This document shows positions 46,601 to 49,600 of a stretch of DNA of 64,000 nucleotides, one piece after another (within the stretch, counting starts at the first letter, position 1; each line of letters opens with the position of its first letter). The stretch comes from a virus (lineage: Duplodnaviria; Heunggongvirae; Uroviricota; Caudoviricetes). A program made the position numbers. The stretch lies in the IMG/VR virus record IMGVR_UViG_2627853701_000009; one strand, written 5' to 3'.

Positions 46601-49600
46601 GGTTTATCGATTTCAAATCCCTGGATATGTTAAGTCTTCAGGCCAGCGGTGGAGTCTTCAGAGAACCCGTAATTATTCCCGGTAGTTTTCCTCTGTAGGT
46701 TATCAACACATCCTGCGCCTCTAAAATTACGGGACGCTTTTCCGGTAACGGACCATCCCCTTCACATAACCCGGCAGCAACATCCATGAAAAACTGCTTC
46801 GCCTGCTTTTTCGCCTCAGCTTCGTAAAACTCCAGCGTGGCACCTTCAGTACGGTCAAGACTAATCGCCACATCTGGCAACAACAGTGACGGATACCCAC
46901 CAATTTCCGGTGCCACAGTAACAGTAATCTTATCCGGGTAATTATTTATCCCTTTAACAACCAGTTCGTATTTTTTCTTCATCACTTTACTCTCCCCGCG
47001 CCGCCTTACGCCGGTCTTCTTTAATCTTGAAATACAGGTTCGTCAGATATGTCAGCAGCCCAAACAGCAGACTCCCCAGCACGCCTATCGCCACCCACTG
47101 GGACGGAGAGACTTTGTCCAGCAGCTGCAGTAACCAGTATCCCGTCCCCACCGCTGACGTGGTGTATGACACACCCGTTGTGATTTTTTCCATCTGGTAC
47201 ATACCCCGTCTCCCGTTATCCGGAAGCTGACAACAATAAAAAAGCCACCAGTTAACTACTGATGGCTCTGATAACTCATGCAGCGTCTCAGACGACCCAC
47301 TGACACTACCGGTGAGTTTAACGATACCTTCCATTTGACTGGCTCACTTTTTATGATGATGCCGGTGCATTTATCTCCAGCACCAGACTTTCTATCTCAA
47401 CGCCATACGCTGCATTTTTTGTAACATCCGTCAGCGTCAGCGCATTCAGTCCCAGTGTCAGACTGTCTTTTATAACCTGGAATGCCGGGCCAGCCACTCC
47501 ATTCAGTTTCGGAGTAACCGTGGCACTGCCGGCGGTGAACACCAGCTCCAGCGTCTGCCAGTCGTTACCGTAATCGCCGAACTCCCCCAGCTTCGTGTTT
47601 CCGGCTTTCCTGTGATGCATCAGATTCACTCTGCCGTCAGTGGTCTGAGTGAAGTACGACATCAGGAACGGATTACCGGTACCCGTCATCGCCACACCAT
47701 CAGGAACGGGAGCATCCGTATACAGATAAATCCCCAGCCCGAACTGATTGTTGGTCAGTGCGCCTGACAGGCGGAACTTACAGTTCAGTCTGCCGCCCTG
47801 TGTCAGCAGGGTAATTGCGTCATCCACCGGATGCGTCAGGGACCAGGTTTTATTGCTCTGCCTGGTGATCTTAAATACACCATCTGACAACTGAATTCCG
47901 CCATCCTTAATGCTCCAGCCCTGCGCAGCAGCCTCTCCGGCTGCCGGCAGCAGGGAGATTGTGCGAACGGACGTATCTGCAGACGGACCCGATGGCGTGT
48001 TGCCGCCGGGCGAGGGTTTGATTTCCGGTGCCTTACCACTGATGAAGCTGAGGTGCGCCCGGCTGCGTTCAGAATAGCGGTTGCCAGCCCTCTTTCAGTT
48101 TGTGTGTCAGCTTTTCCGCAAGGTCTGACGGCGACGCCGCCCTGACAACATCATAATGTTTAAATGTCATTATTCCTCCCCTTTCCGGGATTTTCCTCAA
48201 CAGTTGCGGGCCACGGTCCGGCCACAAGGAGAATCAAAAGAGGAGAACCGCAGCCCGCAAAACGAAAAAGGCCGCGCAGTTGCGCAGCCTTATAAACCCT
48301 GGTTAAAATCCACACGATAAAAATGACAATGCAAGTATCTCATGCTGTTGCCCGAACCCACTCGGGCTTTTTTTTGCATGTAAAAAGGCTCCTGCGATGA
48401 GAAGCCTGGATATATGCCTAATCTCTGTATACAGCATGATGCCGGGTGCCTCCCGGTGAATTCTGCAATGACCAGACAGAATCCGCAACTTGCCTATACA
48501 ATACGCAACCAAACATCTGTCATTATGCCCCGCCGCTCAGGGGGATTCATCATGCAGGATTTTTTTAACAAACGCTCAGCATGTCAGGCAACAGTCAACT
48601 GCCTGAATTGTGAGGCATTTAACATTTCACTGTCCGGTGTCTTTCCTGTAATAAAAAGCCCGCAAAAGAGAGTCAGGGCAGATAAGTGTGGTGTGGTGCG
48701 TTGTACTGGATTCGAACCAGTGACCGATTGCTTAGAAGGCAATTGCTCTGTCCGGCTGAGCTAACAACGCAGAATACCGATAATGGACCGCCACCGGGGA
48801 CTCCGAATCTCGCACAGGGTGACGTTCTTTCCTGATGAGCTAGTGGCGGTTGGTGGCCCTTGCTGGATTTGAACCAGCGACCTGGCGATTATGAGTCGCT
48901 CGCTCTCACCGCTGAGCTAAAGGGCCGATTGCTGAATAATAACGACGCATGATTAACTCCGCAATCTCATCCGTTACGAATGATTAAATCCTGTACTTCC
49001 CGCACCGTCTGCTCAAAACGTTCAGTCTCCAGTTCAACGCCAGTTGCACGACGTCCCAGCGCCATCGCTGCTTTCACTGTCGACCCCGACCCCATGAAGA
49101 AATCTGCAACCAGGTCTCCCGGACGACTGCTTGCGCTGATTATCTGCTGCAACATTTCTGCCGGTTTTTCGCACGGATGTTTCCCTGGATAGTACTGCAC
49201 CGGTTTATACGTCCACACATCGGTGTACGGCACCTGCACCGTCACACCGAAATACCGCCGCAGATGCTTATATTCACTCTGCAGCTCCGCATACTGTCGG
49301 TTCAGAGAGGCATACGTATCCACCAGCTGGTGGTGGGGCTTTTCCAGTTCACCCCGCTGATGCTTCTCTTCTGCCACCCGGGCAAACAGTGCCTGTAATT
49401 TCAGATAATCGCTTTCGTTCGGCAGCTGCCACTGACCGGCACTGAACCAGTGCGACACCATGTTTTTCTTTCCTGTGGCATCTGCAATCTGTTTTGCCGT
49501 TATCCCCAGGACAGCGCGCGCATCACGAAAGTAAGCAATCAGCGGGGCCATCACATGCTGTTTCAGTGTCCTACCCTTCGCCTCATACCCGGCATCTTTC

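Follow-up and report, generated by a model that had tools for sequence, protein, structure and literature searches.

In lysis cassettes built on the phage 21 model, R, the gene of the signal-anchor-release (SAR) endolysin, normally comes immediately after the pinholin gene S, an order that holds in phage 21 as well as in Stx2 phage II. In the Qin prophage of Escherichia coli K-12, the gene ydfR (b1555) lies between the S21-type holin gene essQ and the lysozyme gene rrrQ, 4 nt separating it from the stop codon of the holin. The sole experimental lead on the function of the family to which YdfR belongs, DUF1327, comes from a study of this K-12 protein (PMC13232886, RNA Biol 2026). A two-hybrid screen that used RNase G as the bait yielded YdfR, which gave a stronger two-hybrid signal with residues 1-597 of RNase E. 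In a Strep pull-down it was recovered together with RNase E 1-598, and residues 1-72 of YdfR were enough for the interaction; RNA also co-purified with YdfR, and its overproduction caused no growth defect (PMC13232886). No study of a DUF1327 gene in its phage context was found in the literature on DUF1327 and Shiga toxin (Stx) phage lysis cassettes. Here we analyse a stretch of 64,000 nt (the window) of the Caudoviricetes record IMGVR_UViG_2627853701_000009, in which a first-pass annotation had noticed an extra 114-aa gene between the pinholin and the SAR endolysin. The gene is indeed present at 46638-46982, on the minus strand, which that annotation had left unstated, and it is an already catalogued and annotated member of the YdfR/DUF1327 family rather than a new element. 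Both this identity and its status as an optional insert are, taken alone, near certain. Its function is best explained, with a probability that we put at about 0.4, as that of a late accessory gene, the product of which would bind a protein of the host, RNase E being the most plausible candidate.

The S/R junction and its insert

The features that make up the junction, in the order in which they are transcribed, are as follows.

46987-47202, minus strand: S21-type pinholin gene S, 71 aa, dual start MYQM (M1/M4); PF04971, E 8.5e-33, and PHROG holin families
46990-46997, minus strand: Shine-Dalgarno (SD) sequence GGGGAGAG within the final holin codons, read from the sequence
46638-46982, minus strand: YdfR/DUF1327 gene, the subject of this study, 114 codons plus stop; list of open reading frames (ORFs), PF07041, phrog_406
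46588-46637, minus strand: A/U-rich spacer of 50 nt between the DUF1327 stop and the endolysin start, read from the sequence
46055-46587, minus strand: SAR endolysin gene R, T4-lysozyme family, start at 46587; PF00959 on both of its pieces

The window pinholin is 74.6% identical to S of phage 21. Its stop codon TAA (46989-46987) is followed by four bases, AGTG, and by the DUF1327 ATG at 46982, an in-frame GTG lying one codon 5' of this ATG, at 46985. As the first-pass annotation had proposed, the gene has its own SD, GGGGAGAG at 46997-46990 in the last holin codons, a sequence that serves the start of R in phages in which R follows S. In phage 21, R starts on the final base of the S ORF with no insert, while in Stx2 phage II the R ATG stands 4 nt after the S stop TAA and is preceded by the same GGGGAGAG. 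The DUF1327 ATG of the window thus occupies exactly the slot of the R ATG in Stx2 phage II (compared with locus L099, 2213-2225), and therefore the DUF1327 gene is an insert at the S/R junction, having taken over the ribosome-binding site of R. The insertion leaves R with an A/U-rich leader devoid of an SD and uncoupled from that of the holin: no recognisable SD was seen in the sequence of the 50-nt spacer, and a regulatory hairpin in it was set aside, its folding z-score being +1.1. Translation of R may be weaker or differently controlled in cassettes that carry DUF1327.

This arrangement is the rule among related loci. In the 80 examined in IMG/VR, the 4-nt gap after an S21-type holin recurs in 78, an R-type endolysin comes next after DUF1327 in 77, and the gap before it is 50 nt in 60. 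On the coding strand from S through the ORF to R, no promoter-like or terminator-like site was found in a scan whose overall site counts were near chance level, which bears out the co-transcription with the lysis genes that had been suggested. From its position at the S/R junction and its ribosome-binding site in the 3' end of the holin gene, it follows that the DUF1327 gene belongs to the transcript of the Q-dependent late promoter and that its translation is probably coupled to that of the holin. Since neither a promoter nor a terminator site flanks it, a reading of the gene as an independently transcribed moron was set aside. A few database entries are holin-DUF1327 fusion proteins of 173-187 aa with both PF04971 and PF07041 (P0010, P0068, P0090 and P0091), probably owing to draft assemblies that contain a frameshift at the 4-nt junction.

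The insert might act mainly in cis, by giving R a weak SD-less leader that lowers or delays the endolysin, the protein itself being unimportant. The use by R of Stx2 phage II of the very slot that DUF1327 holds in the window, and the retention of the SD-less 50-nt leader in 60 of the 80 loci, would fit such an effect. Against this stand the purifying selection on the protein and its confidently folded domain, the conservation of that domain at 25-35% identity in other genomic positions, and the lack of significant RNA structure in the spacer, which together make a mainly cis effect very improbable.

A widespread, selected and optional gene

The first-pass annotation had proposed a profile search, a survey of S-R intervals in related prophages and a structure prediction. 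In the profile search, the 114-aa product matched Pfam DUF1327 (PF07041) over residues 1-112 with 155.2 bits (E 5.4e-46, cut-off 25) and phrog_406 with E 3.8e-64; a search of NCBIfam gave no match. Its identity is 100% to a hypothetical protein from phage YYZ-2008 and 98% to ORF47 of the Stx1 phage BP-4795 and to proteins of many Stx1a and Stx2c phages; in BP-4795, E. coli O157:H7 TW14359 and others, the RefSeq name is 'YdfR family protein'. Over 3.4 kb the window is 99.9% identical, with the same annotation, to a lambdoid prophage that lacks stx and occurs in E. coli O157:H7 strains such as TW14359 and EC4115. The gene order S-DUF1327-R-ant-Rz of BP-4795 and YYZ-2008 is likewise identical to that of the window.

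Conservation in relatives, on which the first-pass annotation had made its proposal depend, is extensive. Besides the 78 of 80 related loci, a search at the DNA level matched 3158 of 5426 complete E. coli genomes, as many as eight times in a single genome, and O157:H7 strains carry several copies. The family is small: it comprises 256 clusters at 90% identity, with 103 representatives among 1.84 billion proteins, and is confined to Enterobacterales, its named members coming from Escherichia, Shigella, Salmonella, Citrobacter and Yersinia. The window gene shares the location typical of the family, the late operon of a lambdoid Enterobacterales prophage and, as in Escherichia, a place between an S21-type holin and a lysozyme. 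The 114-aa form is the commonest, with 61 of the 80 IMG/VR loci sampled and protein clusters of hundreds of members. Hence the description of the gene as extra, conserved and co-transcribed stands, while its membership of an annotated family found at the same position in K-12 Qin had been missed.

The ORF is a real selected gene and not a chance one, because it matches Pfam and PHROG profiles, has homologues down to 24-35% identity and shows pairwise ratios of nonsynonymous to synonymous substitution (dN/dS) of about 0.2-0.4 between subtypes in its N-terminal domain. It is nevertheless optional in S21-type cassettes: an S21-like holin occurs in 436 phage records and DUF1327 in 101, and in both phage 21 and Stx2 phage II R follows S directly. 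Its G+C content of 47% (45% in the N-terminal domain) compares with 54-55% for S, R and Rz.

An acidic N-terminal domain and its proposed link to RNase E

The protein falls into two parts.

46761-46982, minus strand: N-domain, residues 1-74, acidic with a pI of about 5, three beta-strands and one long helix; AlphaFold and alignment
46641-46760, minus strand: middle and tail region, residues 75-114 (GDGPLPEKRPVILEAQDVLITYRGKLPGIITGSLKTPPLA), poorly predicted; predicted local distance difference test (pLDDT) below 50

The structure prediction gave a confident model of the N-domain (pLDDT 90.5), in which antiparallel strands 5-14, 18-27 and 38-43 pack on helix 50-73. This domain is the sole part conserved family-wide. 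In an alignment of 24 diverse members, Y5 is nearly invariant and Y53 and E54 are invariant, and the family signature Y5 ... (D/E)R ... YE, spread over some 72-75 residues, is present in the window protein. Residues 75-114 are kept among the E. coli forms and are replaced by other sequence in K-12, mEp460 and PhiR12. The window protein as a whole has an isoelectric point (pI) of 5.5, the median pI of 24 family N-domains being 4.8, and no transmembrane (TM) or hydrophobic segment, its highest 19-residue Kyte-Doolittle mean being 0.89. The product is a small, soluble, acidic cytoplasmic protein.

Searches for distant relationships of the window protein were uninformative. All of its PHROG matches are of 'unknown function' and none falls in the lysis category, so that it shows neither the TM domain nor the lysis-family homology of a holin or lysis protein. 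Against PDB sequences, the profile gave nothing beyond coiled-coil noise (E >= 0.04), Foldseek found nothing among viral structures at E <= 0.001, and the PADLOC defence models gave a single chance-level match (E 0.021), with none for the long form or its convergent partners. A double-stranded RNA-binding domain, which has an alpha-beta-beta-beta-alpha fold and basic RNA-contact regions, was set aside, as the N-domain lacks the N-terminal helix and is acidic.

The K-12 protein is 46% identical to the window protein over residues 1-74; it has 103 aa and a stop that overlaps the rrrQ start, whereas the window protein has 114 aa and is followed by the 50-nt spacer. The tails are unrelated, the window protein having 'PEKRPVILEAQ...KTPP' and K-12 YdfR another sequence. 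The part of K-12 YdfR that sufficed for the interaction with RNase E (1-72) approximately coincides with the part common to the window protein (1-74). As we propose it, the DUF1327 gene would be an optional accessory late gene of lambdoid prophages, standing outside the lysis machinery, whose conserved N-domain would bind a host protein late in infection. The likeliest putative target would be the catalytic N-terminal half of RNase E, and binding could modulate RNA decay, possibly that of the long late transcript; the loss by R of the holin SD in exchange for an SD-less leader would be a side effect of the insertion.

Several observations weigh against this proposal. In the K-12 study, the co-purified RNA may have been carried by a contaminating protein, a possibility that its authors could not dismiss, and YdfR overproduction altered few transcripts (PMC13232886). 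Moreover, the evidence on RNase E was obtained with a paralogue of 46% identity, studied by overproduction outside the phage context. The E. coli members almost always abut the holin stop, which fits a lysis-linked role equally well, and the close pair formed by the window protein and PhiR12_1 has a dN/dS of about 1.2, a value based on few changes.

Distant homologues and the case for a lysis regulator

The genomic context of distant members was taken from six look-ups, which covered members of 72-145 aa, all of them stand-alone N-domains except that of L015.

L006, 1636-1866: distant DUF1327 homologue, after tail gene I
L007, 5001-5219: distant DUF1327 homologue, between tail genes M and L
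L009, 511-741: distant DUF1327 homologue, between tail genes M and L
L010, 529-747: distant DUF1327 homologue, upstream of holins, or after Q
L012, 705-932: distant DUF1327 homologue, after the lysis genes and before the terminase
L015, 4001-4438: distant DUF1327 homologue, upstream of holins, or after Q

The homologue of L008 also lies between tail genes M and L, and those of L013 and L014 share the position seen in L012. Some distant homologues are named by their source as from Yersinia. All these positions are within or adjoin the late genes, which argues that the N-domain acts generally in late development and not specifically on the pinholin or the SAR endolysin; late positions away from lysis cassettes thus disfavour a lysis-specific role.

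The main rival to an accessory function is nonetheless a regulator of lysis timing, in which the acidic cytosolic protein would bind the basic C-terminal tail of S21, or the membrane-tethered SAR endolysin, and so delay or sharpen triggering. T4 RIII and P1 LydB are cytoplasmic lysis-timing regulators that would be functional analogues in that case, and they too are small soluble proteins encoded beside a holin gene. The rival is favoured by the 4-nt coupling to the holin, which is found not only in the 78 of 80 loci but also in K-12, mEp460, Evi and 2H10, as well as by the overlap of the K-12 ydfR stop with the rrrQ start and by the opposite charges of the acidic DUF1327 protein and the basic cytoplasmic tail of the holin. 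However, about three quarters of the phage records with an S21-like holin, including phage 21, the paradigm of this lysis, are devoid of DUF1327, distant homologues are found in tail modules, a long way from any holin, and neither a TM segment nor a match in the lysis category of PHROG was found. Overproduction of K-12 YdfR had no growth phenotype. DUF1327 also differs from RIII and LydB, to which it has no homology, in being optional in otherwise identical cassettes and in having homologues away from lysis genes. We consider a dedicated lysis regulator unlikely.

The first-pass annotation had left the choice between a lysis regulator and an unrelated moron. Because the gene is optional, has a lower G+C content and has distant homologues in tail and other late positions, and because YdfR overproduction is harmless, the evidence leans towards an accessory, moron-like gene.

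Long forms and convergent partners

Longer forms of the family run on from 'KTPP' into at least one extra module, giving proteins of 148, 176, 183, 211, 268 and 329 aa. In every long form examined (176, 183 and 268 aa), an opposite-strand ORF of 87-104 aa lies between DUF1327 and R and partly overlaps the 3' end of DUF1327, and each C-terminal module pairs with a different partner family.

L004, 3000-3266, minus strand: convergent ORF
L016, 1507-1767: convergent ORF
L090, 3817-4131, minus strand: convergent ORF
L024, L072 and L083, about 3464-3739, minus strand: convergent ORFs

No Pfam family was found for the C-terminal modules or for the convergent partner ORFs, and the label 'DUF1823' in PhiR12 records proved unsupported (E 0.11). 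In L015, a 184-aa convergent neighbour of the DUF1327 gene (4488-5042, minus strand) contains the motif RNQFAH (Rx4H, HEPN-like), its Pfam HEPN matches being at chance level (E ~0.08). The 114-aa form of the window, K-12 and mEp460 have no convergent partner. The pattern of partners may mean that the S/R junction is a hotspot of cassette exchange, or that the long forms work together with their partners.

A further explanation sees in the 114-aa form one half left over from a cassette of two genes, which has lost its convergent partner and C-terminal module and retains little or no function; in the complete cassette, for example, a late DUF1327 protein could counteract a partner expressed from the prophage. 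The 176-, 183- and 268-aa forms, each with its own module and its own convergent ORF of 87-104 aa, are in line with this, and a convergent small ORF stands directly downstream in eight of nine distant loci and in phage Evi. Compared with phage 2H10, which has the 183-aa form, the window is about 470 bp shorter, a difference that is exactly the module plus partner. On the other hand, the 114-aa form is the commonest (61/80 loci), intact and conserved, and K-12 and mEp460 are partner-less as well. Module and partner overlap physically, so that their co-inheritance may be mere linkage, and the partner ORFs have no known function. That the window gene is such a remnant therefore seems improbable.

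Neighbouring genes and the endolysin frameshift

The remaining features of the lysis cassette and its surroundings are listed below.

47241-47269, minus strand (47269-47241): terminator-like hairpin, 12 pairs and T-run, ~40 nt upstream of the holin start
45215-45784, minus strand: Ant-like gene (P22_AR_N + ORF11CD3) between R and Rz, G+C 46%; PF10547, E 1.4e-45, phrog_524
45069-45218, minus strand: hydrophobic ORF of 49 aa between R and Rz
44594-45061, minus strand: Rz i-spanin gene; PF03245, E 1e-46
44656-44841, minus strand: Rz1 ORF embedded in Rz; ORF list

Transcription thus proceeds from the hairpin through pinholin S, the DUF1327 ORF, the 50-nt spacer, R and the Ant-like gene to Rz/Rz1, and the hairpin ahead of the holin is consistent with Q-dependent read-through. 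Compared with the lysis cassette of phage 21, the Ant-like gene and the hydrophobic 49-aa ORF are additional inserts. On the upstream side of the holin there is a truncated DUF1737/DUF6645 gene (47351-47890, minus strand), annotated as a pseudogene in TW14359, and no stx gene is found there. Farther upstream, at 48694-48926 on the minus strand, are tRNA-Arg(tct) and a tRNA with anticodon cat, called Met by ARAGORN and Ile by RefSeq, followed by a DNA methyltransferase gene.

Two positions of the window, 46413 and 47282, carry a 1-nt deletion in comparison with O157:H7 TW14359; the second lies just upstream of the terminator-like hairpin. As alignments to BP-4795 and TW14359 show, the deletion near 46413, in a run of C, splits the endolysin, which is intact in both of these, into pieces of 66 aa (46387-46587) and 111 aa (46055-46390). 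Of 791 matching E. coli genomes, only 10 contain the identical 61-nt stretch with the deletion, and the frameshift is either a genuine mutation that inactivates the endolysin or a sequencing error in the homopolymer. The DUF1327 ORF is unaffected by it.

Implications and comparison with phage proteins that bind RNase E

The main outcome of this analysis is a clarification, namely that the gene that appeared as extra is a widespread, annotated accessory gene, very common in E. coli and carried by many Stx1a and Stx2c phages within their lysis cassettes. If the link to RNase E were true for the phage copies, the gene could influence the stability of late mRNAs, the timing of lysis and the release of Shiga toxin. 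A more specific version, which we regard as doubtful, would make the N-domain a modulator of RNase E synchronised with the holin, which would tune the stability of the late transcript (stx and lysis mRNAs in Stx phages) and hence lysis timing and toxin yield; the long forms could in addition be late counterparts of variable convergent prophage genes, which would make the S/R junction a hotspot of cassette exchange.

Small phage proteins that target RNase E are exemplified by Dip of phiKZ, gp0.7 of T7 and Srd of T4. The DUF1327 protein has no detected similarity of sequence or fold to any of them, the analogy being purely functional, with small phage proteins reported to bind RNase E. Under the accessory reading that we favour, its mode of action would resemble that of other small acidic phage proteins that bind this enzyme. 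The DUF1327 protein is acidic, as is Dip, and, unlike Dip, gp0.7 and Srd, it is expressed late and from a temperate phage.

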